Source: Bacillota bacterium (lineage in GTDB: Bacteria > Bacillota > Dethiobacteria > DTU022 > UBA8154). Taken from it: a stretch of DNA of 64,000 bases. A program made the translations under genes and the position numbers. The notes beneath the pieces were generated by a model. That model worked only from the letters and a program-made list of their open reading frames with translations, did no database searches and was not told where the DNA came from. How positions within the stretch are numbered: the stretch's first letter is position 1; every line of letters starts with the position of its first letter. This document shows, in pieces, positions 4,132-32,076 of the stretch. The stretch spans positions 7,866 through 71,865 of the forward strand of contig JAAYRR010000115.1 in assembly GCA_012518675.1 (NCBI GenBank). Direction: 5' to 3'.

Positions 4132-6624
4132 TTAATCCTTGGTTACGGCTGCAATTTTCACAACTTTGTCCTCCGGTGCAAGCCGGATGAGGGTTACACC
4201 CCGGGCATAGCGCCCTTGAAAGGGAACCGAGGATATTTTGGCCCGCATCACCAGGCCCCGGGCCGTAATCGCCATAATCTCCTCTTTTTTGCGCACGGTG
4301 AGAAAACTGACCAGAAATCCTTCTCTTTTTTGGTATTTGAAGGCTAAAAGACCTTTGCCGCCGCGGTTTTGTGAACGAAATTTTTCCATTTTAGTTCTCT
4401 TAGCATAACCGTTTTCGGTCACAAACAGAAAACCGCTTTTTTCTGCCGGGGAAACGATGTTCATACCGATCACTGTATCCCCCGGGGAAAGATTAATCCC
4501 TTTGACTCCCCGTGCCGTCCGCCCCAAGGTCCGCAGCTGCCCGGCAGAAAAACGGATCAGCAGCCCTTGTGCCGTGGCAATACAGATATCGGGTTCTTCC
4601 TCGGATTTTCCGGCTTCCGTTTGCTTCAAAGCGGCAAAATCCTGTTCTGCATCGGCTTCCCCATTTCTCAGCTGGCGGACAGTAATCAGTTCATCACCTT
4701 CCATCAGATTGATGGCAATCAGGCCAAAACGCCTTGCTGTCGCATATTCACTGAGGCTGGTCCTTTTAACAATCCCTTTTTGGGTAACCATAATGATATG
4801 ATCTTCGTCTCCATATTCCCGCAGGGGAAATACCGCCGTAATATATTCCCCGTTTTCCAGGGGCAACAGGTTAACAATGGCCGTCCCCCGGGCCTGGCGT
4901 CCGGCCTCGGGGATTTCATAAACCTTCAACGGAAATACCTTTCCCCGGCTGCAGAAAAACAACAGTTTATCCTTAGTGGAGGAAATAAACAGGTTTTCAA
5001 TAAGATCGGATTCCCGGATAGAATGCCCCCTGATACCCACGCCCCCCCGCCCCTGGCTGCGGTAGGTGTTCAGCGGCAGACGCTTAATGTAGCCGTCACG
5101 TGTCAGGGTAATAACCACCTCTTCATCCTCAATCAGATCTTCCAAGTTAATTTCCCCTTCATCGGGGACGATTTTGGTGCGGCGCTCATCGCCATATTTC
5201 TTTTTAATTTCCAGCAGATCCTGTCTGATCTCCTGCAAGATTAGTTTTTCATCAGCCAATAAGGTTTCCAGACGTTCTATTTCTGCTATCAGGGAACGGT
5301 GTTCGTCTTCCAACTTATGTCTTTCCAAAGCCGTCAGGCGTTGCAAGCGCATCTCCAAAATCGCCCGGGCCTGTTCCTCACTCAGGCTGAATTCCTGCAT
5401 CAGCCCTGCCCGGGCTTTTTCCACATCAGCTGAACCGCGAATCAGGGCTATAATCCGATCTATGTTGTGCAAAGCAATTAACAGGCCTTCGACCAAGTGC
5501 GCCCTTTCCCGGGCCCGGCGTAACAAATACCGGGACCGCCGGGTGATTATTTCTTTTTGGTGATCCAGATAGGCTTTCAGAAAATCCCGGAGCGGCAAAA
5601 CACGGGGCACATCATCCACTAAAGCCAACATTATTACACCAAAGGTTTGTTGTAAAGGCGTAAATTTATAAAGCTGGTTGAGAATTACCTGGGAATTAAA
5701 ACCTTTTTTTATTTCCATCACAATGCGGACACCGTCGCGATCGGATTCGTCCCGCAGTGCCGTAATACCAACAACCTTTTTTTCCCGGACCAGCCCGGCA
5801 ATTCTTTCAATTAAGCGGGCCTTGTTTTGCAAATAGGGTATTTCTGTAATAATTAATTTTTCCCTGCCGTCTTTTTTGGTTTCAACCCGGGCCTGGCCCC
5901 GCAGGCGAATTCTGCCCCGGCCGGTGGTATAAGCCTCCTGGATGCCTTTATGCCCAGAAATGATCCCTCCGGTCGGAAAATCGGGGCCCTGCATATAGGT
6001 CATCAGCTCCTGGGAGGAGGCAGAAGGTTTTTCGATCAACCAGATCAGCGCATCGATCGTTTCCGTAAGATTATGCGGGGGAATATTGGTGGCCATCCCC
6101 ACAGCAATACCGGCCGAACCGTTGACCAGCAGGTTGGGAAAACGTGAGGGTAAAACCACGGGCTCTTCCAGGGTTTCATCAAAATTAAGCCTGAAGTCCA
6201 CCGTTTCCTTATCCAAGTCGCGCAGCATTTCCAGCGCCAAAGGTGTCAGGCGGGCCTCCGTGTAACGCATAGCTGCCGGGGAATCACCGTCCATGGAACC
6301 AAAGTTACCCTGGCCGTCCACCAAAGGGTAACGGATGGTAAAATCCTGGGCCATGCGCACCATGGCATCATAAACAGCCTGGTCACCGTGGGGATGATAT
6401 TTTCCCAACACTTCCCCGACCAGGCGGGCCGATTTTTTATGCGGTTTGTCCGGGGTCATCCCCAATTCCCGCATAGCATAAAGGATGCGCCTGTGCACGG
6501 GCTTCAGACCATCGCGGATATCAGGTAGAGCCCGGCTGACAATTACACTCATGGCATAATCCAAAAAGGAACTTTGAACTTCCTTGTGAATAGGAATAGC
6601 CGTTGTTCTTTCTTGTTCCGGCAT
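4132..6624 (-). CDS. gyrA: DNA gyrase subunit A
   Basis: 830 aa; N-terminus ...[26 protein letters not shown]...GKYHPHGD matches GyrA, including the QRDR-region motif. Confidence 0.97.
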
Positions 6625-6780: not shown

Positions 6781-8703
<1,923 letters not shown>

Positions 8704-8728: not shown

Positions 8729-8971
8729 TTATAATTTTCTTGTTTTTTCAATTCTTTTTTGTAAAGTTAAAGAAGAAATAGGCGAATAAAAGACTTTGTC
8801 CGTAGTAATGACAAAAGCATTATTTTTTTCATTTTCTGCTGCACCGACTTGTTCCCGGGAATTACTTTCCAAAAACTGGGTATTATCCTGGTTTTCTTTG
8901 ATTTCCAAATTAAAAATACCGACTATGTCCTGCAAATGGACAACACGTGAATTGCCGATATGTAAAAACAT
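8729..8971 (-). CDS. remB: DUF370 family protein (RemB/YaaB-like)
   Basis: Internal ATG at 8971 (MFLHIGNSRVVHLQDIVGIFNLE...) preceded by AAAGGAGTGGGG. DUF370 signature; conserved position between recF and gyrB as in Bacillus. Confidence 0.7.
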   Translation of the reverse strand: MFLHIGNSRVVHLQDIVGIFNLEIKENQDNTQFLESNSREQVGAAENEKNNAFVITTDKVFYSPISSLTLQKRIEKTRKL

Positions 8972-9038
8972 TTTTTTTCCCCACTCCTTTAGATTTTGAC
9001 GGCATAAAAATAAATTATACACTGTACTGTATATACTA

Positions 9039-9938
9039 TCAAATACAACTGTATAAAAGCTGATAAAGTCCCGGAAAATTTTTTAACGCCTTAAAAATAT
9101 CCTCTTGTTTGATGTAGGGTGGCTCCTTGGCGGTAACAAGTAGGATATGGTTTTGTACCAATCCTTTTAAACTTTCTTTTTGCCGGCTGTCCCGGGGCCG
9201 GTTTTCTGTTAAACAAGCCGTAATTTGTTGGGCAGAACTATCGATCAGCCTTTTTTTATAGAGTGCAAACATCTTTTTATCCAATAAAGGGTGTTTACTA
9301 TGAATTTCACAATATTTACCCCAAGGGGTCTGCTGAAAAAAATTTTGCAGAACGGCTGACCAGGATTCATAGTCATGCCAACAAAGTTCACAAAAACCTG
9401 CTTGTAACGTAAATGTTAACCTGCGACACCTTTCACAAGCCCGGGCACCTTCTATTTCTTTGCCTTTTTGTTGCAGGTAATAATTTTTAAAAATTTTTTG
9501 CAGCCGGGCTTGTAAAAATTCAGGAGCTTGCTGTATAATTTTTTCCAATTCCTGTTCTTCTTCTTTTTCCAACTGTACCCTGCCTGTTTCTGGTTTTTCA
9601 GCAAAAAAAGTCCCTTGTTTTGTTTTTTCCGGTTGCTGTTGCCAGCCGGATTTGAAGTCAGCGTTAATGAATTTAATTTCCTGCAAAATTTTCGCACCCG
9701 CAAAAGTATTAAAATCTGTTATTATTTTATGTTTTAAAAGGGTCAGGTGATAAAGCCAGGTGCTGTCGTTTACTTCTACAGTCATCTTTTGCCGGCTGAT
9801 GTTTACCGGGCGGGTATAAGCAGCAACCTGCCGGCCAACCACAGTAGGCCACAGCTGGAGGTAACGGCGTTTTTCCAATTGTTTCTCAAGGCCGCACTTT
9901 TTTAACAGGGACTGCAGGGGTTTGGCTAATTTATCCAT
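9039..9938 (-). CDS. DUF721 (DciA-like) domain protein with C-terminal zinc-ribbon extension
   Basis: The N-terminal ~90 aa (LWPTVVGRQVAAYTRPVNISRQKMTVEVNDSTWLYHLTLLKHKII) fit the DUF721/DciA signature. The C-terminal ~200 aa are extra and include CERCRR...CELCW (a CxxC-x16-CxxC pair). The gene sits between recF and gyrB, as dciA does in many bacteria. Confidence 0.6.
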   Translation of the reverse strand: MDKLAKPLQSLLKKCGLEKQLEKRRYLQLWPTVVGRQVAAYTRPVNISRQKMTVEVNDSTWLYHLTLLKHKIITDFNTFAGAKILQEIKFINADFKSGWQQQPEKTKQGTFFAEKPETGRVQLEKEEEQELEKIIQQAPEFLQARLQKIFKNYYLQQKGKEIEGARACERCRRLTFTLQAGFCELCWHDYESWSAVLQNFFQQTPWGKYCEIHSKHPLLDKKMFALYKKRLIDSSAQQITACLTENRPRDSRQKESLKGLVQNHILLVTAKEPPYIKQEDIFKALKNFPGLYQLLYSCI

Positions 9939-9941
9939 ACC

Positions 9942-11069
9942 TTATTCCTCTCTCCTAGCCCGGCCCCGCTGCACATGAAAAACAGAAGGAACAGCAAATT
10001 GCTGCCGGAACGTAGCAAACCCGGCCTCTTTTTTGGTCATTGTCAAAAAAACCTGGCCGGCATCCTTAAAAAGATTAAAACATTCCTGCCTGCGCTGTGC
10101 ATCCAGTTCTGAAAAAACATCGTCCAATATAAAAACAGGTTTTTCTTTTTGCTGATTGTAATGCTGCAGCTGTGCAGCTTTCAGGGCAATAACAGCACTA
10201 CGCTGCTGTCCGTGTGAAGCATAGCGCCGGGCTTCCCGCTCGTCCAACAAAAAGGAAAGATCATCACGATGGGGCCCGACAAGAGAAAACCCCCTTTGCA
10301 GTTCTTCTGCAGCCGCAGCAGCCAGCCGTGCTTTAAAGGCCGCCTCAATTTCCTCCGGCTGGGCGGCCAAAAGATCTTTGTTTAAAAAGGTAACATATTT
10401 TATTTGCAGCCGGGGACCTTTGTTAAAAAGGAGGCTGTAATTGCGGGCCGCCAATTTACCCCAGGCTGCAACAGCATGTGCCCTTTGTTTTATAATTCTG
10501 CTCCCAAAATAGATTAGCTGTTTATTCCAAACCTTTAAAAATTCGCCGCTGTGGGCCGAATGCCAGTTTTCTTTTAAAGCACGGTTTTTCTGGTAAACAA
10601 CACGGTTATAGCGGCTCAACCAGTCGCCATAAAGGGGATAAAGCTGGCTTATTTCCCGATCCAGAAAACGTCTTCTTTCCTCCGGGCCCCTGCGGATCAG
10701 TTCTAGATCTTCAGGTACAAAACAAACCAGCGGGCAGCGCCCTTCAAGACCGGCTCGTTTTACAACTTTCCCATCTATTTTGATCACTTTCCTTTTTTTT
10801 TGTGCTTCATAGCCCACTTCCAATTTATAAAAGCGCTGCTGTAAAAAGATGGTGCCCCGCAGGTAGTAATAAGGGGTATCCCAGCGAACAAGATCGTTTT
10901 CTTTATAGTTTCTGAAAGAACGGGCAAAACAAAGACAGTAAATAGCTTCCAAAAGGTTGCTTTTACCCTGGCCGTTGTCCCCCCGGATTACACAGATTCC
11001 CGGTTCAAACTGGAGCTCTTCCCGTTCATAATTACGAAAATTGAGGAGATGAAGTTCCTTAATAAACAA
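9942..11069 (-). CDS. recF: DNA replication and repair protein RecF
   Basis: 375 aa; Walker A GDNGQGKSNLLEAI and the SMC-like signature. Confidence 0.95.
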   Translation of the reverse strand: MFIKELHLLNFRNYEREELQFEPGICVIRGDNGQGKSNLLEAIYCLCFARSFRNYKENDLVRWDTPYYYLRGTIFLQQRFYKLEVGYEAQKKRKVIKIDGKVVKRAGLEGRCPLVCFVPEDLELIRRGPEERRRFLDREISQLYPLYGDWLSRYNRVVYQKNRALKENWHSAHSGEFLKVWNKQLIYFGSRIIKQRAHAVAAWGKLAARNYSLLFNKGPRLQIKYVTFLNKDLLAAQPEEIEAAFKARLAAAAAEELQRGFSLVGPHRDDLSFLLDEREARRYASHGQQRSAVIALKAAQLQHYNQQKEKPVFILDDVFSELDAQRRQECFNLFKDAGQVFLTMTKKEAGFATFRQQFAVPSVFHVQRGRARREE

Positions 11070-11111
11070 AACGTGCTCCTTCCCGGTTGCCCTGTATTTT
11101 TTGTCAAATTA

Positions 11112-12248
11112 TTAATCCGGTTTGATGGGTAAAACCAAATAGCGGTAATTTTCCCAGCTGTCTTCCCTTTCTCGGCGGTGTTGAAAAATACACGGGCCTA
11201 AAGGGCCGTTAAACTGTACTTCAACAGACTCTTCTTTCCAAATACGCAATACGTCCAGAAAAAAGCGGGAATTAATTAAAATTTCATCCAGGTCATCCCC
11301 TTCCTTGCCTGTAAGTTCTATTTCTTCCTCCATTTTGCCAATTTCAGAATTCGATCGTACCTGCAGTGTTTCTCCCCTTACCCCCAGGGCGATCATACGG
11401 TTTTCCCCCTGGGCCAGCAAAGCCGCCCTGCTAACTGTTTTTTCCAGCAGTTCCGTCGGTAATACTATCTTTGTAACAAAACCCTGGGGAAAAGCTGTCA
11501 ATAAGTCCGGATATTTATCCTCCAGTAGTCTGCTGGAAAAAACATATTGTTTATGCACGAAAATAATTTCATCCTTTTGAAAATAACAAGCCACTGTTTC
11601 CTGTGCGTCACCCAGGATCCTGGCTATTTCTCCTAAGGATTTACCGGGAATTAAGAGGCGAAAAGGTTGAAAATTACTGTTCCCGCTGAAAGATTTTTCA
11701 AAACAGGCCAGCCGGTATGTATCTGAAGACAAACAAAGAAGTTGTCCCTGTGCATCGGCTTCCAATAGAATCCCCCGGAACGAAGGTTTATTTTCATCCT
11801 GGGAAACAGCAAAAAGCACCTGTCGCAGAATATCCATAATTTCCGGCGCAGCAAAGGTTAAATTAGTCCATTGTTGCCATTCCTGTTCAGCGGTTAAATT
11901 TGGAAACTGCTCGGCATCAGTACCGTACAGGGAAAAGCAAGCTGTACCGCTTTGTATAGAAACACGCAGCTCTTTGTCATCTAAATTAATTTCTATCTCC
12001 TCAGCAGGTACCTGCCTGACAATATCAAAAAATTTTGCCGGTAAGATCACACTGCCCTGCCGTGATATTTTTGCTGGGCAATACGTTTTTAAAGTCATAT
12101 CCAAACTGCTGGTGGTTAAAAGCAAATGATCGTCTGTAGTTTCAATTTTCACACCTTGTAAAAATGCCAGCGGTGTGCGGGTGGGGATTATTTTTTCCAA
12201 GGTATTTAGATTTTCCATCAATTTATTTTTATGGAGAAGAAGCTGCAT
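11112..12248 (-). CDS. dnaN: DNA polymerase III beta sliding clamp
   Basis: 378 aa; three-domain beta-clamp architecture, in the conserved dnaA-dnaN position. Confidence 0.93.
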   Translation of the reverse strand: MQLLLHKNKLMENLNTLEKIIPTRTPLAFLQGVKIETTDDHLLLTTSSLDMTLKTYCPAKISRQGSVILPAKFFDIVRQVPAEEIEINLDDKELRVSIQSGTACFSLYGTDAEQFPNLTAEQEWQQWTNLTFAAPEIMDILRQVLFAVSQDENKPSFRGILLEADAQGQLLCLSSDTYRLACFEKSFSGNSNFQPFRLLIPGKSLGEIARILGDAQETVACYFQKDEIIFVHKQYVFSSRLLEDKYPDLLTAFPQGFVTKIVLPTELLEKTVSRAALLAQGENRMIALGVRGETLQVRSNSEIGKMEEEIELTGKEGDDLDEILINSRFFLDVLRIWKEESVEVQFNGPLGPCIFQHRREREDSWENYRYLVLPIKPD

Positions 12249-12535
12249 TTTATTTTTTTCCTCCTATTTTTTTGATAATCCCCAAATGACTACTTTATGA
12301 TTAGCATTAACTAATATTTAATAATAAATAAGTAATAGTAGTCATAAGGTTTGTGAATATGTGTATAAGTGTTTTATATCCCGGTTTTATGGCAAATGTT
12401 AGTGTGGAAAACTTGTGGATAACTTAAAAAGGTTACCCACAAAACCCACAAGTCTTAAATTTCTACAAGCAAGTGGTGAAAGTTACCCACAGTTTTAATT
12501 TTTATTAACAACCTTTCAACAGGCCTGTCCACAAC
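12249..12535. other. oriC DnaA-box cluster (dnaA-dnaN spacer)
   Basis: A perfect TTATCCACA (reverse orientation, 12414-12422) plus at least four one-mismatch boxes (TTACCCACA x2, AAACCCACA, TGTCCACAA) within 130 nt. The spacer is AT-rich. Confidence 0.75.
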
Positions 12536-13906
12536 TCAGTAGCTTAAAAGATTTTTGATTTCATTAACGTGGCGCAAGAGGCTGTCGTCCTTTTTTATAT
12601 GCGCAGAAATCTTTCTATGGGCATGCATAACAGTGGTATGATCTTTGCCCCCGAAGTCATCCCCAATTTTGGGCAGGGATAAATCTGTAAGTTCGCGGCA
12701 GAGATACATGGCAATTTGACGCGGCAGGGAAATGTTTTGTGTTCTTCTGCGGGATTTAATATCCCGGGTTGTTATTTTAAAATAAGAAGCTGTTACCGAC
12801 ATAATATGTTCTGCATTCAGGTTTTTTTGCTTGGGGGTTAGAAAATCTTTAAGTGCTTCTTCAGCCAAGGGCAGATCGATTTTTTTATTTTCCAGGGAAG
12901 CATAGGCAATAATACGAATTAGAGCTCCTTCCAGCTCCCGGATGTTATTTTCTATTTTTTGCGCAATGAAGAGCAACACATCATCTGTAAACATTATTCC
13001 TTCCAAAGAACTTTTCTTGCGTAAAATGGCAATTCTTGTTTCCAGGTCCGGGGATTGGATGTCTGTAATCAAACCCCATTCGAAACGTGAACGCAGGCGA
13101 TCTTCGAGTGTTGGTATCTCTTTGGGCGGGCGATCACTGGAAATGACAATTTGTTTGCTGTTTTCATGGAGGGCATTGAAAGTGTGAAAAAATTCCTCCT
13201 GCGTCTGTTCTTTTTTTGCTAAGAATTGGATATCATCAATTAGGAGGACATCGACATTGCGGTAGATATTGCGAAATTCTTCGGTTTTGTTGTCCCGGAT
13301 GGCGTTAATAAATTGGTTGGTGAATTTTTCTGATGAAAGGTAGTTCACTTTTTCACTGATATTGTGAGAAACAACATAATGGCCGATAGCATGCATAAGA
13401 TGGGTCTTACCCAATCCTACACCACCGTAAATAAACAGGGGATTATAAGCCTTGGAGGGGGCTTCCGCGACGGCCAAAGAAGCAGCATGGGCCAAGCGGT
13501 TGCTGCCACCGATTACAAAACTACTGAATGTATACTTAGGGTTTAGCCACTTACAAGTTACGGAAAGAGCCTTTTTGTTAGTATTTTCCGACTTTGGGGG
13601 GAGATTAACAGCTTTTAGATTATGCAAAGACGTTCTTTTTTCCTGGAAGTCAATATTCTGGGGTGTTACAAAATGTATGTAGTAGGGAGAATCGCTAATT
13701 TTTTTTAAGGCAAAGGATAGTGATTCACGGTAATGGTTTTTTAACCAATTGCGGGTAAAATCATTTGGGACTTCCACAACAATGGTACTGTCCTGTATCG
13801 CAATAAGCTTTGTTGTTTTTAACCAGGTTTCAAAACTTGGTTTACTAAGTGTTTTTTTCATTTCAGAAAGAACCGCATGCCAGATGGCAGGCAGGGAATC
13901 TTCCAT
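12536..13906 (-). CDS. dnaA: Chromosomal replication initiator DnaA
   Basis: AAA+ Walker A ([10 protein letters not shown]) and the C-terminal DnaA-box-binding domain. Start taken at the internal ATG 13906 ([12 protein letters not shown]...), preceded by GGAGGG; the longer ORF-track start would overlap the oriC palindrome. Confidence 0.95.
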
Positions 13907-14140
13907 ATAAAACCCTCCATAAATAAAGTTATTCACAAATATCTCATAGTTATCCACAAAAGTTGTGGATAACTATGAGATATGCTGCTTGTTGGTGGTT
14001 CATCAATATAATAACAGATGAAACATCTTGCTGCAATGAAAACGCCTGTGCATAACTACCTGTTTTTATCGTGTATTTCTATTTTGTTCTAAAATGATAT
14101 TAATTTATTTGTAAATTTTTTAAGGGCCGCTGGCGGGTCA
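13907..14140. other. oriC upstream of dnaA: DnaA boxes including a 19-nt perfect inverted repeat, plus an AT-rich unwinding element
   Basis: ATCTCATAGTTATCCACAA-aag-TTGTGGATAACTATGAGAT (13941-13981) contains two perfect DnaA boxes in inverted orientation. An additional TTATTCACA lies at 13929. 14041-14130 is strongly AT-rich (DUE-like). Confidence 0.75.
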
Positions 14141-14160
14141 AAAAGAGGGCCGCACTGTAG

Positions 14161-14189
14161 TTGCATGTGGGGATAAGATACGTTATAAT
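14161..14189 (+). promoter_or_regulatory. Sigma-A-type promoter for rpmH-rnpA
   Basis: TTGCAT (14161-14166), then 17 nt, then TATAAT (14184-14189). Confidence 0.5.
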
Positions 14190-16615: not shown

Positions 16616-16714
16616 AATATTGCCGGGGAAATGATAGATTTTTGTCTAAAGATACAGGGAGTTCTTGGGAACTTCCTTATTTTTTATCAGGACTTTTCAA
16701 GGGGGGGTCTGCCT

Positions 16715-18136
16715 GTGGATAATGCCGCTGATACTATCGTGGCTGTTTCAACACCACCCGGTGAGGGCGGTATTGGCATTGTGCGCCTTAGCGGCAGTGA
16801 AGCTTTGAAAATTGGTTTAAAAATTTTTTCCCGCAAGCATAAACACGGGCAATCTGTTCCCTTGCGGCGCTCTTTTAAACCTGCGGCCCGCAAACTTTAT
16901 TATGGGCATATTGTAGACGATCAGGGTATTGAGCTTGATGAAGTGTTATTTAGCTTTATGCCGGGTCCCCGCTCCTATACCTGTGAGGATGTTGTTGAAA
17001 TTAATGCCCATGGCGGTGCTGTCCCTTTAAAAAATATATTGGAACTGGCCTTAAAAAAGGGGGCCCGTCTGGCTGCACCGGGTGAATTTACAAAGCGGGC
17101 CTTTTTAAACGGACGCCTGGACTTAATACAGGCGGAGAGTGTTTTAGCCCTGATCAGGGCTAAAACAGACAAGGCCCTCAAGGCGGCAATACGGAGTTTG
17201 GAAGGGGCTCTTTCGGGTGAAATTGCAAAAATACGGGCCGGGATTGCCGCCCTTTTAGCACAAATTGAAGTAGAAATAGATTTTGCACACGAGGATGCCG
17301 ATTTAGCGCCGGCAGGGGATAACCATATTGGTGAAAGCATAGAACGGCTTCTAAAAAAAATGAAAAGGTTGCTGCAAAAGAGATTTCAGGGCAGGGTTTT
17401 ACAGGAGGGGCTAAAAACAGTTATTATGGGCAGGCCCAACGTTGGCAAGTCATCCCTTTATAATTATTTAGTCCGGGAGGAACGTGCTATTGTTACAGAG
17501 ATTCCCGGCACAACAAGGGATCTTTTAAGGGAATACATTAACGTCAAAGGAATTCCCTTGCAGTTGGTTGATACTGCCGGTTTGCGCCGGGCAGGGGATG
17601 TGGTAGAAAAAATAGGCATGGATTTTTCCTGGAAAGCCATTCAAGAAGCTGATCTATTATTGTTTATGTTGGATGCTGCGCAGGAGATAACCCCAGAGGA
17701 CTATTACATTTATGAACGTATACCCCGGAATAGCGGACCGGCGGTTCTCTTTATACTGAACAAAATTGATCTGTCCAGAAAACTGTCTCCCCAAGAGGTT
17801 AAAGAAAAATTTTCTGTAAAAAACGTTTTGGAAATTTCTTTGCTACAGGGTGACGGGCTTGAAAAACTGGAGGCAGCAATCAGTAATATGGTTTTTTCCG
17901 GTGAAGCAGCTGCAGAAGAAAGTGTGCTGCTTTTAGAGGCCCGGCAGGGGGAGTTGATGCAGCAGGCCCTTATTTGTATGACAGAGGCGTGGGAAGCCTT
18001 GGCAAAGAAATTGCCCTTGGATCTGATTAGCATTGACTTACGTCAGGCGCAGCAGTTTTTAGGTGAGCTGGTCGGGGAGGAAATTGGTACAGAGGTGTTA
18101 GATCTTGTTTTTCAAAAGTTTTGCATTGGCAAGTGA
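16715..18136 (+). CDS. mnmE: tRNA modification GTPase MnmE
   Basis: GTG start after GGGGGG; DTIVAVSTPPGEGGIGIVRLSG N-terminus, G-domain GRPNVGKSSL, C-terminal CIGK. Confidence 0.93.
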   Translation: MDNAADTIVAVSTPPGEGGIGIVRLSGSEALKIGLKIFSRKHKHGQSVPLRRSFKPAARKLYYGHIVDDQGIELDEVLFSFMPGPRSYTCEDVVEINAHGGAVPLKNILELALKKGARLAAPGEFTKRAFLNGRLDLIQAESVLALIRAKTDKALKAAIRSLEGALSGEIAKIRAGIAALLAQIEVEIDFAHEDADLAPAGDNHIGESIERLLKKMKRLLQKRFQGRVLQEGLKTVIMGRPNVGKSSLYNYLVREERAIVTEIPGTTRDLLREYINVKGIPLQLVDTAGLRRAGDVVEKIGMDFSWKAIQEADLLLFMLDAAQEITPEDYYIYERIPRNSGPAVLFILNKIDLSRKLSPQEVKEKFSVKNVLEISLLQGDGLEKLEAAISNMVFSGEAAAEESVLLLEARQGELMQQALICMTEAWEALAKKLPLDLISIDLRQAQQFLGELVGEEIGTEVLDLVFQKFCIGK

Positions 18137-18156: not shown

Positions 18157-18879
18157 ATGGAGATAGAACAGATAATGTCATATTTTTCGTCCTGCGGCCT
18201 ACCCTTGAACACAGAAAAGGCGCTTCAATTTAGACAATACCAGGCCTTAATCCGGCAGGAAAATAGAAAACTAAATTTAACACGTATTTTGCAACCCCAG
18301 GCCATTTTGGAGGAACATTTCTATGATGCTCTTGCCTGGTTGCCGGCCGGCAGGTTACAGCCGGCGGCAAGGCTTTTGGACTTGGGCACCGGCGCTGGTT
18401 TTCCTGGTATTCCGTTAAAAATTGTTTTACCGTCTTTAAAAATGTACCTTCTAGAAGCTACTCGGAAAAAAATTATTTTTTTAAAGAAGGTAATAAAGGA
18501 ATTAAACCTAAGAGAGGTCACTTTGTTTCAACAGAGGGCTGAAGTTTTGGCCAGGGGAGAATTGCGGGAAAGTTTTGCCTGGGTTACGGCACGGGCTTTA
18601 GCCCCCCTGGCTGCAGCCCTGGAATTAGCTTTACCTCTTGTCCGGGTTGGGGGTTTTTTTTGGGCCTGGAAGGGTCCCGCTGTCTTCCAGGAACTGGCAC
18701 AGGCGGAGCATATACTGGCCCGCTGTGGCGGAAAACTCATTGATCAGTTTAATTATAGGTTGCCGCAGGGTAATAAAGAAAGAACTATTTTAATTTTTAA
18801 AAAGGTAGCCCCGGCAGAAGATTATTTTCCACGCAGGGACGGCATCCCCCAAAAAAGGCCTTTGTTTAATAAAAATTAA
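18157..18879 (+). CDS. rsmG: 16S rRNA (guanine527-N7)-methyltransferase RsmG
   Basis: 240 aa; SAM-binding LDLGTGAGFPGIPL. Lies directly after mnmE with no mnmG in between. Confidence 0.9.
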   Translation: MEIEQIMSYFSSCGLPLNTEKALQFRQYQALIRQENRKLNLTRILQPQAILEEHFYDALAWLPAGRLQPAARLLDLGTGAGFPGIPLKIVLPSLKMYLLEATRKKIIFLKKVIKELNLREVTLFQQRAEVLARGELRESFAWVTARALAPLAAALELALPLVRVGGFFWAWKGPAVFQELAQAEHILARCGGKLIDQFNYRLPQGNKERTILIFKKVAPAEDYFPRRDGIPQKRPLFNKN

Positions 18880-19021
18880 TAAAAAGAAGGAAAAAAAATC
18901 CTCATGTCGAATTATTACAGCAAATACAAAATTTAACACAAGTGCGCCAAGAATTGTGCATAAAACAAAAAAGCCGGCAAAAACATCTAAAGAAAATAAA
19001 TGTAAACCGGGGGTGTCCTCT

Positions 19022-19861
19022 ATGTGGGATTTAAAAGGAAAAAAATTAGGTTTAGAACAGGGAGAGAAAGTTACCGAGGATATTCGAAATGTCAGCATGG
19101 AGCGCGTACAAAACAATCCCTATCAGCCGCGGGTAATCTTCGAAGAGGAAAAAATAAAAGAGTTGGCCCAATCCATAAAAACCTATGGTTTACTGCAGCC
19201 AATTATTTTAACCCCGGAAAAAGACGGTTATTATATTGTAGCTGGTGAACGACGCTTTTTAGCATGTGAAATGCTGGGTTGGTCGGAAATACCTGCTATT
19301 ATCAGGGATTATCAGGGTAGTTCACTGGCTGCGGTAGCATTGATAGAAAACCTGCAGAGAGAAAACCTTAACTTTATGGAGGAAGCACACGGATATAAAC
19401 GCCTCATGGAAGAATTTAATTTAACGCAGGAGGTATTGGCCCAGAGGCTTGGCAAAAGCCAGTCTACCATTGCCAATAAACTTAGGTTATTAAAATTACC
19501 CCTGGAAGTTAAAGATATTTTACGCAAAGGCAACCTTACAGAGCGGCATGCCAGGGCTCTACTTAAACTAGAAACAGCAGAAAAACAACTTGAAGTTGTA
19601 GAAATCATCTTAGAATTGGATTTGAATGTTAAAGAAGCAGAGGAATTAATACAAAAAATCTGCCAGGACGGTGTGAAATCTCCAAAAAACACTGCGACAC
19701 AACGTAAAGTTATCATTAAGGACTTAAGAATATTTTTAAATACGATCAGACAAGCCTTAGGTATTATTCGCAAAGCTGGTATTAAGCCTTCGGTAGAGGA
19801 AATAGAACAGGAAAAATTTTGGGAAATTCGTATTCGCCTACCCAAAGATCAACAAAATTAA
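19022..19861 (+). CDS. noc: ParB-family nucleoid occlusion protein
   Basis: ParB N-terminal box (LLQPIILTPEKDGYYIVAGERRFLA) and HTH; first ParB paralogue after rsmG, as for noc in Firmicutes. Confidence 0.8.
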   Translation: MWDLKGKKLGLEQGEKVTEDIRNVSMERVQNNPYQPRVIFEEEKIKELAQSIKTYGLLQPIILTPEKDGYYIVAGERRFLACEMLGWSEIPAIIRDYQGSSLAAVALIENLQRENLNFMEEAHGYKRLMEEFNLTQEVLAQRLGKSQSTIANKLRLLKLPLEVKDILRKGNLTERHARALLKLETAEKQLEVVEIILELDLNVKEAEELIQKICQDGVKSPKNTATQRKVIIKDLRIFLNTIRQALGIIRKAGIKPSVEEIEQEKFWEIRIRLPKDQQN

Positions 19862-20063: not shown

Positions 20064-20837
20064 ATGTGGGGTGAAAAAGTGGAAGGAATTATAGCAGTTG
20101 TTAATCAAAAAGGCGGGGTGGGCAAGACAACAACAGCTGTGAATTTAAGTGCCTGCTTAGCTGCATTGGGTAGCAAAGTTTTATTGATGGATCTGGATCC
20201 TCAGGGTAACGCAACCAGTGGCGTCGGCCTTGACAAAGAAAAGGTAAAAATTTGTGTGTATGATGCCCTGATTAACGAATTTCCTGTAGAAAAAGTTGTT
20301 TATAATACTAAACAAAAAAACTTGGACTGTATACCGGCTACCATTCAACTTGCCGGGGCTGAGATAGAATTGGTGCCGACTATCTCACGTGAAGTACGGT
20401 TGCGCCGCATGGTTAAACCCTTATTGGACAGGTATAAACATATTATTATCGATTGTCCGCCTTCCTTGGGTTTGCTAACTTTAAATGCCCTCACTGCTGC
20501 AGATATGGTGCTTGTGCCGATTCAATGTGAATATTATGCTTTGGAAGGATTGGGACAACTGGTTAAAACGATCGACTTGGTAAAACAACACTTAAACAGC
20601 GCTTTAAAAATAGGCGGTGTGCTATTAACAATGTATGATCAGCGAACCAACCTTTCAGCACAGGTAGCTGCTGAAGTGCGAAAATATTTTGGGCAGCTTG
20701 TTTTTAACGCAGTTATTCCCAGAAATGTTCGGCTTAGCGAGGCTCCCAGCCACGGCAAGCCTGTCATTGAATACGATCCGCGCAGTAAAGGGGCAGAGAT
20801 GTATAAAAAAATGGCAAAGGAGGTTATGCAACGGTGA
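20064..20837 (+). CDS. soj: Chromosome partitioning ATPase ParA/Soj
   Basis: Deviant Walker A NQKGGVGKTTTAVNL. Confidence 0.93.
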   Translation: MWGEKVEGIIAVVNQKGGVGKTTTAVNLSACLAALGSKVLLMDLDPQGNATSGVGLDKEKVKICVYDALINEFPVEKVVYNTKQKNLDCIPATIQLAGAEIELVPTISREVRLRRMVKPLLDRYKHIIIDCPPSLGLLTLNALTAADMVLVPIQCEYYALEGLGQLVKTIDLVKQHLNSALKIGGVLLTMYDQRTNLSAQVAAEVRKYFGQLVFNAVIPRNVRLSEAPSHGKPVIEYDPRSKGAEMYKKMAKEVMQR

Positions 20838-21730
20838 GTAGACAAAAATTGGGGTTGGGCAAAGGACTGGGGGCTTTGATCCCTGAACTGCACACGGGGG
20901 CTGCTTCTACAGAGGGTAATGCCCGGGATAGCACGGTCGAAATTCCCCTAAGTAAAATTAAACCTAACCCCCACCAACCAAGAAAAGACTTTGATAAGGA
21001 AAAATTAAAGGAATTGGCAGAAACAATTCAACAATATGGGGTTTTACAACCTGTGATTGTCCAAAAAGCAGCCGAAGGATTCCTTTTGGTTACCGGTGAA
21101 AGAAGGTATCGTGCCGCGTTACAAGCTGGGCTGCAAACAATTCCCGCTTTGATTCGCGAATATGATACCCGTCAAATTATGGAGATTGCGCTTGTGGAAA
21201 ACCTGCAGCGGGAGGATTTGAATCCTTTGGAAGAGGCCACGGCTTATAAAAAACTTTTAGAAGAATATAATTACCTGCAGGAGGATTTAGCACAAAAACT
21301 GGGCCGTAGCCGGGCCGCAATTGCTAATACAGTCCGTTTATTAGCCCTGGATGAAGATGTACAAAATTATTTGGCAGCAGGCAGTTTGAATGCTGGACAG
21401 GCCCGGCCGTTGTTGGCTCTCAGCAGCGCCGATGAACAGCGTACCTTTGCTGCTAAAATAATAAAAGAAAAACTGAGTGTGAGACAAGTTGAGAAACTAG
21501 TGAAGGCCCATCTCAAAAAGGATGCGCTGCAAAATAAAATTCCGGAACCATCTTCGGAAAAACAGATCCAGGAATTATATCTAAAAGAATGTGCAGAAAA
21601 ATTGCGCAGATCCTACGGGACCCGGGTAGTGATCAAGCATGGCCCGCGGGAGGGCAAGGTGGAACTATCTTTTTATGGGGAAGAGGATCTGGAAAGATTA
21701 ATGGAGATATTGTTAAACGCCAGTTCATAA
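20834..21730 (+). CDS. spo0J: Chromosome partitioning protein ParB/Spo0J
   Basis: ParB box GERRYRAA and HTH; overlaps the soj stop. Confidence 0.93.
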   Translation: MSRQKLGLGKGLGALIPELHTGAASTEGNARDSTVEIPLSKIKPNPHQPRKDFDKEKLKELAETIQQYGVLQPVIVQKAAEGFLLVTGERRYRAALQAGLQTIPALIREYDTRQIMEIALVENLQREDLNPLEEATAYKKLLEEYNYLQEDLAQKLGRSRAAIANTVRLLALDEDVQNYLAAGSLNAGQARPLLALSSADEQRTFAAKIIKEKLSVRQVEKLVKAHLKKDALQNKIPEPSSEKQIQELYLKECAEKLRRSYGTRVVIKHGPREGKVELSFYGEEDLERLMEILLNASS

Positions 21731-28234: not shown

Positions 28235-28687
28235 GTGAAGGTTATTTTTTTGGAGGAGGTCCCCAACGTAGGGGAAAAAGGAGAGATTAAGGATGTAGCT
28301 GCGGGCTATGCACGCAACTATCTAATCCCGAAAGGCCTGGCCCAACGGGCTACGCCCGGTCGTCTTAAAGATTTAAAAATGCAGGCTGAAGCCAAGGCCC
28401 GGAAAACTGCCAAGGAAATTCAGGCAGCCCAGAAAATAGTGGCCAAGCTGGCAGGGAAACAAGTTAACATTAAGGTAAAAGCCGGGGAGGAAGGGCGTCT
28501 GTTTGGTTCTGTTACCTCTGCTGATATTGCCCAAGCGCTTGTGGCACAAGGTATTAAGGTGGATAAGAAAAAAATTGAACTGGGAGATTACATTAAATCC
28601 CTGGGAGACTATACAGTGCAGATTAAACTGCATCCGGAGGTAGCTGCTTCTATAAATGTAATTGTAGAAAAAGCTGAAGAGGAATAA
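28235..28687 (+). CDS. rplI: 50S ribosomal protein L9
   Basis: [32 protein letters not shown]. Confidence 0.95.
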
Positions 28688-28753: not shown

Positions 28754-30748
28754 ATGCAAAAATATTCAAACAATTTACTTCCTGTCTTTCCTAAGCTTAG
28801 CAGGGAAGGTTTGCAGAAAAAAATTAAAGCTTTTTATGAACTGCTGACTACAATTTATGGTGCTGATAAACTGATTTTAAAGGCTACAAAATTTGAAGCC
28901 TTAAAGCTGATACAATCCCCGCGCTTGGAAGAAAAGGTGCTGGGTTTGCAGAAAATTGTTTTTGAGGATCCGACGCTGGATCAAATTCCCCCGTTTAAAA
29001 AAGTGCCGGCTGTTTTAGATGAACTGGAGGAACAGGCGGCTGAAATAATGGCCCGCCGCCTGCTTAAAGAATCTCTTGAAAAAAGGGTTAACCTTAAACT
29101 GCAGGAACGGCATGAAGATTATATCAGGGAAGTAAAAGAACAGCTGCTTAAAGAAGAGGCGGGTCCGGAAAATTCCCGGACGCTGAAAAAATATGCCCTG
29201 TTGGAGAAAATGTTTGCCGAGGAACTTTCTCATTCTGCACTGGAGTTTTTACGACCGGCCAGCCTTAAGGAAATAGTGGGGCAGGAGAGGGGTATCCGGG
29301 CGTTGATGTCCAAGTTGGCTTCACCTTTTCCCCAGCATCTAATTATCTACGGGCCGCCCGGTGTGGGAAAAACAGCAGCAGCCCGCCTGGCACTGGAGAC
29401 TGCTAAAAAAACAGCCCATGCTCCTTTTAGCAGTGCGGCCCCCTTTGTTGAGGTTGACGCCGCTACGTTGCGCTGGGACCCCCGGGAAACGGCCAACCCC
29501 CTTCTGGGTTCCGTGCATGATCCCATCTACCAGGGGGCCAGGCGGGAACTGGGTGAAGGGGGTATTCCCGAACCAAAACCGGGCCTGGTGAGCGAGGCCC
29601 ACGGCGGGGTACTTTTTATTGATGAAATCGGGGAGATGGATCTGCGGCTGCAAAACAAGCTGCTTAAAGTTCTGGAGGATAAACGCGTTTATTTTGATTC
29701 AGCTTATTATGATCCCGCTGCCTCCCAGGTACCGAAATATATTCATAAATTATTTGCAGAGGGCGCGCCGGCGGATTTTGTTTTAGTGGGGGCTACTACC
29801 AAAGCTTCAGCGGAGATCTCCCCGGCCTTGAAATCAAGGTGCAGTGCAGTATACTTTGAGCCTCTTTCCCCGGAGGATATTCAAAAAATTGTAAAGAACG
29901 CCGCTAAAAGGTTGGCGGTAAAAATATCCCCTGCTGCGGTGGAACTGATTTCCCGTTATACAAGTGAGGGGAGAAGTGCAATTAAACTGTTGGCGGATGC
30001 TTACGGGCTGGCGCTCTACAGCTTATCGGAAACAAAGAGCGGCGGCAACGGTTTCCTTGCAGGTACCGGCAAAAATGGCCTCCAGGCTTCAGCACATAAA
30101 AACCGGCCTGGGAAACCCCAACAGGTTGTGCTGGGCAAGGAAATTATGGAGGAGGTTATCCAAAGTAACCGCCTGCTGCCGCTGGTTTGGCAGCGGCATA
30201 CAGCTGAGGCACAAATCGGGAAGATTTATGGCCTGGCAGCGGCAGGTTATTTGGGGACGGTATTGGAAATTGAAGCCATCTCCTTCAAGGCCTCCCAACC
30301 CGGCAAGGGTAAAATAAGGTTTAATGAGGCTGCCGGCGTGATGGCCCGGGACTCTGTTTTTAACGCTGCTTCTGTGTTGCGCAAGGTTTGTGGCCTGGAT
30401 ATCAGTGAATACGATCTACATATTAATGTAATCGGCGGTGCCAACATAGAAGGCCCTTCCGCCGGTGCAGCCTTGTTTCTGGCTCTGTATAGTGCCTTAA
30501 AACAGGTGCCGCTGCGCCAGGATGTTGCTGTCAGCGGTGAACTGTCCCTGCAAGGCAAGATTAAGTCCGTCGGGGGGCTGTCGGAAAAACTGTATGGCGC
30601 CCGGATAGCAGGCGTGCGTGAGGTTTTTTTACCGCAAGAAAATTATAACGAATTGTTTTTTTCCCTGCAGGGTATCAAAATTAATTACGTGGCCGGCGTA
30701 GAAGATTTGCTGCCCCTTGTCTTGGTACAGGAGGCTGAAGAAAAATGA
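28754..30748 (+). CDS. lonC: Lon-family ATP-dependent protease, LonC-like (sporeformer type)
   Basis: AAA+ Walker A GPPGVGKTAAARL; Lon proteolytic domain with catalytic Ser in GPSAGAA. Located between rplI and dnaB as described for LonC. Confidence 0.8.
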   Translation: MQKYSNNLLPVFPKLSREGLQKKIKAFYELLTTIYGADKLILKATKFEALKLIQSPRLEEKVLGLQKIVFEDPTLDQIPPFKKVPAVLDELEEQAAEIMARRLLKESLEKRVNLKLQERHEDYIREVKEQLLKEEAGPENSRTLKKYALLEKMFAEELSHSALEFLRPASLKEIVGQERGIRALMSKLASPFPQHLIIYGPPGVGKTAAARLALETAKKTAHAPFSSAAPFVEVDAATLRWDPRETANPLLGSVHDPIYQGARRELGEGGIPEPKPGLVSEAHGGVLFIDEIGEMDLRLQNKLLKVLEDKRVYFDSAYYDPAASQVPKYIHKLFAEGAPADFVLVGATTKASAEISPALKSRCSAVYFEPLSPEDIQKIVKNAAKRLAVKISPAAVELISRYTSEGRSAIKLLADAYGLALYSLSETKSGGNGFLAGTGKNGLQASAHKNRPGKPQQVVLGKEIMEEVIQSNRLLPLVWQRHTAEAQIGKIYGLAAAGYLGTVLEIEAISFKASQPGKGKIRFNEAAGVMARDSVFNAASVLRKVCGLDISEYDLHINVIGGANIEGPSAGAALFLALYSALKQVPLRQDVAVSGELSLQGKIKSVGGLSEKLYGARIAGVREVFLPQENYNELFFSLQGIKINYVAGVEDLLPLVLVQEAEEK

Positions 30749-32076
30749 AAGAACCTGCCCAGCGTTTGCCACCGCAAAATATAGAGGCGGAGCAATCAGT
30801 TTTGGGAGCCATGTTGTTGGACACTGAAGCTTTGGTTGAAGTTGCCGAGGTTCTTTCCTACCGGGATTTTTACCGGGAAACGCACCAGCATATTTTTGAG
30901 GCATTGCTCGATCTTTTCAACAGGGGTGAGGCTGTAGATTTAGTGACGGTCTGTGAAGAGCTGGAAAACAAAGACTTGCTGGAAAGAGCGGGGGGTGCGG
31001 TCTACCTGGCCACCCTGGCCAACATGACCCCTACAGCGGCCCATGCCCGCTACTATGCCGGGATTGTCAAAGAAAAAGCACTGTTGCGGGCCTTGATTCG
31101 TTCCGCTACAGATATTGTGGAAAAATCTTACGGCTATGTGGAAAATATTGAGGAATTTTTGGATGAAGCAGAACAGCTGATTTTTGATGTAGCCCGCAAA
31201 AAAGATACACAAAGTTTTATACACCTGCGGGAAGCCTTGGAACAGACCTTTGAAAAGCTGGAAAGGCTTTATGAAAGAAAAAGCGGGTTGACGGGTCTGT
31301 CTACCGGCTTTCCTGATTTAGATAATATTACCTCTGGTTTTCAGGCAGCGGATCTGATTATTATCGCTGCCCGCCCCAGTATGGGCAAGACAACCCTGGC
31401 GGTTAACATTGCCCAACAGATGGCGGTTACTGAAGGGACGCCGGTGGCTTTTTTTAGTTTGGAGATGTCCAGTGAACAGCTCGCGCAAAGGATGCTCTGT
31501 TCTTCGGCGGAAATAGATGCCCAAAGACTGCGCCGCGGCTTTCTTTCCGCAGAAGACTGGCCGCGTCTAACCCAGACAGTAGGCCCGCTTTCCGAACTTC
31601 CTTTGTACATTGATGATACACCGTCTATTTCTGTAATGGAGATGCGTGCTAAAGCGCGCCGTTTGAAACTGGAAAAGGGATTAGGTGCAGTTTTTGTTGA
31701 TTACCTGCAGTTGATGCGCGGCAGCGACAGGGCTGAAAACAGGCAGCAGGAGATTTCCGGCATTTCCCGGGCCCTGAAAGCCCTTGCTAAGGAGCTGAAC
31801 TGCCCGGTAATTGCGCTCTCCCAATTAAGCAGGGCCGTTGAACAGCGTCAGGATAAACGTCCTATTTTAAGTGATTTACTTGATTCAGGCGGCATTGAAG
31901 CCAATGCGGACATGGTTATTTTTATTTACAGGGATGATTATTATTTTCCCGAAACAGAAAAAAAACATGTTACAGAAATACTTATTTCCAAACAAAGAAA
32001 TGGACCGACCGGCAAAGTTGAACTTTATTTTATGGACCGCTACACCAAGTTTGTCAGTATTTCCCACCAAAACTAA
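30745..32076 (+). CDS. dnaB: Replicative DNA helicase DnaB (DnaC in Bacillus nomenclature)
   Basis: N-terminal QNIEAEQSVLGAML; RecA-like domain ARPSMGKTTLA; no intein. Confidence 0.95.
   Translation: MKEPAQRLPPQNIEAEQSVLGAMLLDTEALVEVAEVLSYRDFYRETHQHIFEALLDLFNRGEAVDLVTVCEELENKDLLERAGGAVYLATLANMTPTAAHARYYAGIVKEKALLRALIRSATDIVEKSYGYVENIEEFLDEAEQLIFDVARKKDTQSFIHLREALEQTFEKLERLYERKSGLTGLSTGFPDLDNITSGFQAADLIIIAARPSMGKTTLAVNIAQQMAVTEGTPVAFFSLEMSSEQLAQRMLCSSAEIDAQRLRRGFLSAEDWPRLTQTVGPLSELPLYIDDTPSISVMEMRAKARRLKLEKGLGAVFVDYLQLMRGSDRAENRQQEISGISRALKALAKELNCPVIALSQLSRAVEQRQDKRPILSDLLDSGGIEANADMVIFIYRDDYYFPETEKKHVTEILISKQRNGPTGKVELYFMDRYTKFVSISHQN

Follow-up and report, generated by a model that had tools for sequence, protein, structure and literature searches.

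A DciA protein with a conserved, putative zinc-finger and helical C-terminal domain in the origin operon of a Dethiobacteria-class Firmicute

The replication origin region of a Bacillota bacterium of the class Dethiobacteria (GenBank assembly GCA_012518675.1, contig JAAYRR010000115.1), analyzed here as a stretch of 64,000 nucleotides (the window), encodes a long form of DciA, the ancestral and most widespread helicase loader of bacteria, whose way of loading DnaB is still being worked out. The gene (9039 to 9938, minus strand) begins with ATG and comprises 299 codons plus a stop, giving a protein of 299 residues with full-length orthologues at 46 to 99% identity and a gene order matched in related loci. 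A preliminary description of this DNA, made from its letters and a list of open reading frames (ORFs), had noted an ORF of this extent between recF and the DUF370 and gyrB genes, and it is present in that place. In this protein, a rare, conserved, and structurally orphan domain, composed of a Cys4 zinc finger and a set of helices, stands in place of the floppy tail; it is a variant of DciA and not a new replication system. The interpretation that we favor, to which we give a little better than an even chance, is that long-form DciA is the operator (loader) of the replicative helicase in this Dethiobacteria-class Firmicute, its extension being a prefolded, zinc-stabilized docking unit for DnaB.

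The N-terminal domain is established as a true member of the DciA family by its hidden Markov model (HMM) match and its predicted fold. Residues 4 to 90 match the DUF721 family (Pfam PF05258) with an E value of 9.8e-18 and a score of 64.6 bits (gathering score, 24) over positions 2 to 89 of the 89 in the profile, in line with what the preliminary description had read in this part of the sequence; the matches in NCBIfam are weak and involve actinobacterial DUF721 equivalogs only. In the full-length AlphaFold2 model, the KH-like domain (residues 4–92; 9663 to 9929, minus strand) shows helices at residues 5 to 39, strands at 42 to 48 and 51 to 56, helices at 59 to 80, and a strand at 87 to 92, that is, the topology of helix, strand, strand, kinked helix, and strand expected of DciA. 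A Foldseek comparison of the model gives as top match the DUF721 domain of DciA from Deinococcus radiodurans (PDB code: 7ykm; TMt 0.83, root-mean-square deviation of 1.7 Å, and 33% identity), followed by both DciA chains (8a3v_C and 8a3v_D) in the complex that DnaB and DciA of Vibrio cholerae form. Also, a profile of 40 family members matches 7ykm with an E value of 9.8e-18. Two tryptophans of this domain, W30 and W61, are near-invariant. Equating either of them with the critical W113 of the mycobacterial protein was considered, and no reliable residue-level mapping was obtained, so no equivalence is claimed.

The KH-like domain is followed by a flexible linker (residues 93–121; 9576 to 9662, minus strand), which differs in length and sequence from one family member to another and whose predicted local distance difference test (pLDDT) score is below 50 at residues 96 to 121. 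The rest of the protein was modeled separately (residues 118–299) with a diverse alignment, and it is predicted to fold with very high confidence, with a mean pLDDT of 94.8 and a predicted template modeling score (pTM) of 0.84. The extension opens with two helices (residues 122–163; 9450 to 9575, minus strand), predicted at residues 125 to 136 and 140 to 162 with a pLDDT of 95 to 97; the second of them, located just before the cysteine module, is basic across the family, with a mean net charge of +3.1 and 28% of lysine and arginine. The Cys4 module comes next (9378 to 9449, minus strand; C168, C171, C183, and C186), and a C-terminal helical domain (residues 188–299; 9042 to 9377, minus strand), modeled with a pLDDT of 88 to 98, completes the protein. 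For this last domain, no relative was found in Pfam, PDB, BFVD, or PHROG.

The four cysteines do not vary in a set of 40 divergent sequences with a column identity of 24% on average, a degree of conservation far beyond chance, and by sequence and model the module would bind zinc. The preliminary description had proposed here a zinc ribbon of the form CxxC-x16-CxxC; the cysteines stand, and the details change. In the window protein the finger reads CERC-RRLTFTLQAGF-CELC, with a spacing of 11 (CxxC-x11-CxxC), whereas in the family the spacing goes from 9 to 16, being 10 the commonest. Moreover, the modeled finger consists of a zinc knuckle, a β-hairpin, and a long helix (residues 184–203) with a second CxxC at its N-terminus, followed by a bundle of more helices, so that the predicted site resembles a treble-clef finger more than a classical two-hairpin zinc ribbon. 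Known Cys4 fingers of the treble-clef type, such as the C-terminal finger of FmdE, RecR, and the ribosomal protein uS14 type Z, share with it the CxxC knuckle, the β-hairpin, and a helix headed by the second CxxC, and are often preceded by basic residues. However, the window protein matches them below threshold, and nothing in them corresponds to the helical domain around the finger. In terms of sequence, some family members match the FmdE treble-clef finger (zf-Tbcl_FmdE, PF23475) with E values of ~5e-7; others match Zn_ribbon_3 (E = 5e-4) or DZR (E = 1.6e-3), and weak matches to the zinc finger of RecR (RecR_ZnF) are also obtained. The family profile reaches uS14 type Z in the PDB at an E value of ~0.005, and the best match of the window protein itself among curated zinc-finger families is zf-DBF, with an E value of 0.87.

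The conservation of the extension is not restricted to its cysteines. P205 is the same in all 40 sequences, W206 and P273 in nearly all of them, and P273 lies in a conserved K-E-P273 context, which bears out the impression of a conserved C-terminal segment given in the preliminary description. A further motif, FPGLYxxLY, is invariant in the close group only and is not kept by distant members. This motif, FPGLYQLLY in the window protein, was considered as a C-terminal β-clamp-binding motif and discarded because of this restricted invariance and because it lies within a predicted helix of the fold. When the closest orthologue (L001) is compared, the ratio of nonsynonymous to synonymous substitution rates (dN/dS) is 0.09 in the KH-like domain, 0.19 in the extension, and 0.46 in the linker. 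The C-terminal helical domain has a dN/dS of 0.17. With a second orthologue (L002), the values are 0.08 for both the KH-like domain and the extension, which are less reliable since dS is 2.6, near saturation. Thus, the KH-like domain and the extension are under purifying selection, which is relaxed on the linker, and the division into two folded parts and a disordered linker is confirmed by selection.

The long form is rare. When 1.84 billion cluster representatives were searched with a profile built from an alignment of the extension alone, 46 of them were recovered at E values of 1e-3 or lower and 11 at 1e-10, so the usual architecture of DUF721 proteins is not the long one, a point on which the preliminary description is supported. 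Nearly all matches are proteins of 280 to 320 residues in which the match starts near residue 110 to 130, and PF05258 is present at the N-terminus of every one of the 40 aligned members. The short matches look like fragments: P0037 begins at base 1 of its contig and P0032 at base 16, these being the two whose contigs were examined, and truncation is seen in P0022, P0024, and P0043. No stand-alone gene for the extension was found among the matches to the profile. Since the aligned members all carry PF05258 and the short matches are fragments, the extension is seen only fused to DciA. A word-indexed search with the same profile gave eight matches and no new taxa, and only Dethiobacteria-like metagenome-assembled genomes (MAGs) were reached when genomes were scanned with the close alignment. 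As far as the DciA literature could be searched, the extension is undescribed. A phage origin was also considered for it and set aside, being the best match in BFVD at an E value of 0.99 and with no match in PHROG.

The nearest relatives (46 to 99% identity) are encoded in Dethiobacteria MAGs and in bins labeled Bacillota or Syntrophomonadaceae, plus one labeled Desulfovibrionaceae. This last contig (L004, CAZRVU010000002.1, "uncultured Desulfovibrionaceae bacterium") encodes DciA in its long form and a GyrB 83% identical to that of the window, and it is probably a misbinned or mislabeled Dethiobacteria-like contig. Distant members are found in the cultured Natranaerobius trueperi (WP_158212392.1 / OWZ83468.1) and in a Vulcanimicrobiota MAG (MFP4496793.1). 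Natranaerobius thermophilus also has an orthologue of 300 residues (B2A2Z0_NATTJ) encoded on its 3.17-Mb chromosome, which shares with the window protein the long architecture, the four cysteines, and the P-W pair, although both proteins are only 25% identical over 285 residues (E = 9e-22). The gene order of the Dethiobacteria loci is that of the window. In N. trueperi it is dnaA-dnaN-S4-recF-dciA-remB-gyrB-gyrA, thus sharing the recF-dciA-remB-gyrB segment; in one further distant lineage it is dnaA-dnaN-dciA-gyrB-gyrA; and in the Vulcanimicrobiota MAG recF-dciA lies inside a scattered operon. Altogether, dciA is in or beside the recF-gyrB slot of the origin operon in the window and in the loci L009, L010, L011, L012, and L013.

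Two related loci lack the extension. In L007 (8001–8315), a KH-only DciA of 104 residues, 49% identical to the KH-like domain of the window by tblastn, is followed after 10 nucleotides by remB, and in L008 (3827–4126) a KH-only DciA of 99 residues occupies the corresponding recF-dciA-(remB)-gyrB position. The GyrB of L007 is 78.8% identical to that of the window, a higher value than those of the long-form loci L005 (75.6%), L006 (74.7%), N. trueperi (64%), and L009 (56%). Because GyrB identity nests L007 among long-form lineages, its short form is the result of a secondary, clean deletion of the ~200-codon extension.

A comparison with the DciAs already characterized shows where the long form departs from them. 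The published DciA pattern consists of a KH domain, an unstructured linker, and one or two helices that bind the LH-DH element of DnaB. Group-2 DciAs, such as those of V. cholerae and Pseudomonas aeruginosa (PDB code: 8a3v), have a KH-like DUF721 domain, an unstructured linker, and two α-helices and act on a DnaB-type helicase, and the KH-like domain, the linker, and the first two helices of the extension fit this plan. However, the Vibrio and Pseudomonas proteins are ~150 residues long, end after the two helices, and remain disordered in this region until bound to the LH-DH element of DnaB. In the window protein, by contrast, the two helices are predicted within a folded domain of ~180 residues together with the Cys4 finger and five more helices: a disordered linker and two helices are present, but the helices are predicted to belong to a compact domain, which sets them apart from the so-called lassos described before. 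At the level of the family profile, sequence similarity to the V. cholerae protein is confined to the KH domain. On the other hand, the group-4 DciAs (Bacteroides, Thermotoga, Rickettsia, and the proteins of L007 and L008, these two at the same locus) have the same KH domain and neither linker nor extension.

A functional analogy, and no more than that, can be drawn with DnaI from Bacillus subtilis, a helicase loader that also has a zinc-binding module, which in DnaI contacts the helicase. DnaI differs from the window protein in having an AAA+ domain and an unrelated core, and its zinc module is located at the other end. Kinship with the N-terminal zinc domain of DnaI was tested and rejected since sequence and fold matches are both absent: the window protein matches neither DnaI_N (PF07319) nor DnaI structures, and neither PF01695 nor PF07319 is found at E values of 1 or lower in it or in 35 extension sequences. 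Likewise, DnaB_2 or DnaD-like domains (PF07261 and relatives) are not found in the window protein.

The gene belongs to a row of replication genes on the minus strand, in the order dnaA (12,536–13,957), dnaN (11,112–12,248), recF (9942–11,069), dciA, remB (8729–9022), gyrB (6781–8694), and gyrA (4132–6624). Two clusters of DnaA boxes flank dnaA. One, in the dnaA-dnaN spacer (12,360–12,491), has five boxes with at most one mismatch; the other, upstream of dnaA (13,929–14,176), has five boxes, two of them perfect. In the whole window, 36 boxes with at most one mismatch are counted against 13.1 expected, a number reached in none of 100 shuffled sequences, and the GC skew switches sign at 12 to 14 kb. 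These clusters are the two halves of a bipartite oriC of the Firmicute type, ~2.4 kb from dciA, and the gene thus sits in the recF-gyrB slot beside oriC, where the preliminary description had put it. A further box with one mismatch (TTATCCATA, 9931–9939) overlaps the point where recF and dciA meet and the start codon of the latter; this lone site may well be due to chance.

The presumed client of DciA is also encoded in the window. It is a DnaB-type replicative helicase (30,745–32,076, plus strand; PF00772 and PF03796, E = 2e-111), whose best match among solved structures is DnaB from Geobacillus stearothermophilus (PDB code: 2r6a, E = 1.7e-153). No gene for DnaD, the DnaB of B. subtilis, DnaI, or an IstB-like protein is found within the 64 kb, and DnaI would be absent from the genome as well. 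The preliminary description regarded a DciA-like protein as unexpected in a Firmicute, a view that is not supported as stated. A total of 15 phyla, among them the Firmicutes, are reported to have dciA between recF and gyrB (Brezellec et al. 2016, PMC5109545), and N. thermophilus and Acetohalobium arabaticum are listed with one DciA and no AAA+ protein of the DnaC/DnaI type (AAA-CI) (PMC5109545, Supplementary Data). Since the DciA of N. thermophilus is of the same long form, the window comes from a deep-branching Firmicute lineage where DciA is to be expected. What is new is that the DciAs of N. thermophilus and Dethiobacteria share the long architecture, N. thermophilus having been counted in the 2016 dataset merely as a PF05258 protein.

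A residue of DnaB was also considered as a marker of helicases served by DciA or by DnaC/DnaI. The position W+5 of the DH helix is occupied by Q in the window, by M in Geobacillus, a Bacillus relative that we take to be served by DnaI, and by D in Thermus, presumably served by DciA. The rule, based on a Ser or Gly at the determinant position, was derived only within Enterobacterales and Alteromonadales (Marsin 2021), and the marker is uninformative here.

With these elements, a mechanism can be proposed for the long form. The loader would be expressed from the dnaA-dnaN-recF-dciA-remB-gyrB-gyrA origin operon. Its KH-like domain would contact the periphery of the C-terminal domain of DnaB and bind single-stranded DNA, by analogy with the DciAs already studied, and the disordered linker of ~30 residues would tether this domain to the C-terminal module. 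In that module, according to the model, the two helices of the extension would be locked in a compact domain by the Cys4 finger and the five-helix bundle, forming a preformed, zinc-stabilized unit for docking on DnaB. Also, the basic helix and the zinc finger may add a nucleic acid–binding surface that helps to place the helicase on unwound origin DNA. That the extension binds DnaB and DNA is suggested by its position, its conservation, and the analogy with other DciAs.

Several observations weigh against this proposal. The link between the extension and DnaB comes from position, conservation, and analogy, and the correspondence of its two helices to the DnaB-binding hairpin of V. cholerae is by position only; moreover, if they are packed into a domain as modeled, these helices may not be free to bind the LH-DH element as the Vibrio hairpin does. 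The zinc site has only weak likeness to known fingers, the window protein giving E values of ~0.005 or worse. The KH-only proteins of L007 and L008, encoded at the same locus, indicate that some lineages can do without the extension or replace it, and KH-only DciAs are thought to be sufficient elsewhere. Finally, Thermosediminibacter oceani has both DciA and AAA-CI proteins (PMC5109545), so both can coexist in a Firmicute.

Other explanations were considered. The extension could be a tether to the origin, binding single- or double-stranded DNA at the unwound oriC or DnaA, while the KH-like domain alone handles DnaB; it would then be a built-in adaptor with a role comparable to that of DnaD and the adaptor DnaB (of the B. 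subtilis type) in Bacilli. We regard this as unlikely, though as a serious candidate: the basic helix immediately precedes the finger, the finger bears a weak likeness to nucleic acid–binding zinc modules (uS14 type Z and the zinc finger of RecR), regions outside the lasso are documented to bind DNA in Caulobacter and mycobacterial DciA, and the KH-only relatives in L007 and L008 suggest that the KH-like domain can suffice for helicase contact. The extension may also be a so far unrecognized, DciA-specific functional domain that confers a capability that other DciAs do not have, be it a tether to origin DNA or DnaA or a rigid, zinc-dependent grip on DnaB, a possibility to which we give rather low credence. 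If this is true, a tether would unite loader and adaptor in one polypeptide, a zinc grip would imply an altered loading mechanism and an initiation perhaps sensitive to zinc or redox conditions, and the repeated loss of the extension in sister lineages would mark switches between loading strategies.

Alternatively, the protein could be a relic of the DciA domain or a moonlighting factor, being helicase loading in charge of a DnaI/DnaC- or DopE-type loader encoded elsewhere in the genome and serving the tail for regulation (redox or zinc sensing) or for RNA binding through the KH fold. The scan for loaders covers the 64-kb window of the genome, T. oceani combines AAA-CI proteins with DciA (PMC5109545), and the architecture is labile in evolution, as the tailless proteins of L007 and L008 show. 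However, both halves of the protein are under strong purifying selection, its position in the origin operon is kept across lineages whose GyrB is only 56 to 64% identical, no DnaD, DnaI, or IstB-like gene lies in the 64-kb origin region, and the long-form species N. thermophilus is reported without an AAA-CI protein (PMC5109545), so we consider this explanation improbable. As for the long ORF being an artefact, such as a frameshift fusion of two genes or a spurious read-through, only its unusual length would speak for it, the median DciA having 148 residues. This idea is effectively refuted, given that 40 or more independent cluster representatives, cultured Natranaerobius isolates with a finished chromosome among them, have an uninterrupted protein of ~300 residues, and that the extension folds confidently in the model, shows a dN/dS well below 1, and yielded no stand-alone gene.

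The long form offers a useful natural experiment on how DciA engages DnaB. To our knowledge, all mechanistic work on DciA so far has dealt with proteins that bind DnaB through a short, disordered lasso. A folded, zinc-containing tail could ease the trapping of the protein with DnaB for structural work, and it could show whether the disorder of the lasso is essential to the loading mechanism. One deep-branching group of Firmicutes, made up of Dethiobacteria together with Natranaerobiales, shares the architecture with one or more Vulcanimicrobiota lineages, the relatives with the extension deleted offer a natural comparison set for its contribution, and cultured representatives, Natranaerobius and Dethiobacter, are available for biochemistry. 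The current view of replication initiation in Firmicutes is not overturned by these data since Firmicutes that use DciA and have no DnaI are already on record.

Regarding the immediate neighbors of dciA, recF (minus strand; PF02463 SMC_N, E = 2.4e-21) is directly upstream with a gap of 3 nucleotides, and both genes are probably cotranscribed; in the Natranaerobius and Vulcanimicrobiota loci, recF and dciA overlap by 20 nucleotides. The downstream gene, remB (minus strand), encodes a DUF370/RemA-like protein (NCBIfam MtxRegRemB, E = 8.6e-19; PF04025, E = 4.4e-7), and because the match to the RemB family begins at residue 18, the gene probably starts at the ATG at 8971. The ORF start of dnaA is also probably too far upstream: the mechanical ORF has 473 residues, the DnaA orthologue in L010 and L011 has 456, and the tblastn matches start at about residue 14 to 17 of the longer ORF. 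The dnaN-recF junction of the window (11,069–11,112) has no S4-domain, yaaA-like gene, and N. trueperi has one (L013:8634–8855).

Upstream of the DnaB-type helicase, between it and rplI (28,235–28,687), lies a gene for a Lon-like protein of 664 residues (28,754–30,748, plus strand) with an AAA+ domain and a Lon_C proteolytic domain. Its stop overlaps the start of the helicase gene (30,745) by 4 nucleotides, which suggests translational coupling of this protease with DnaB. Farther from dciA, mnmE (16,631–18,136) is directly followed by rsmG (18,157–18,879), with no mnmG/gidA between them, as in the Dethiobacteria loci L010 and L011 and unlike N. trueperi (L013), where gidA adjoins mnmE. Finally, two genes of the ParB family (18,956–19,861 and 20,834–21,730) are located on either side of a ParA/Soj gene (20,064–20,837), the Noc/Spo0J-type ParB-ParA-ParB arrangement typical of Firmicute origin regions.

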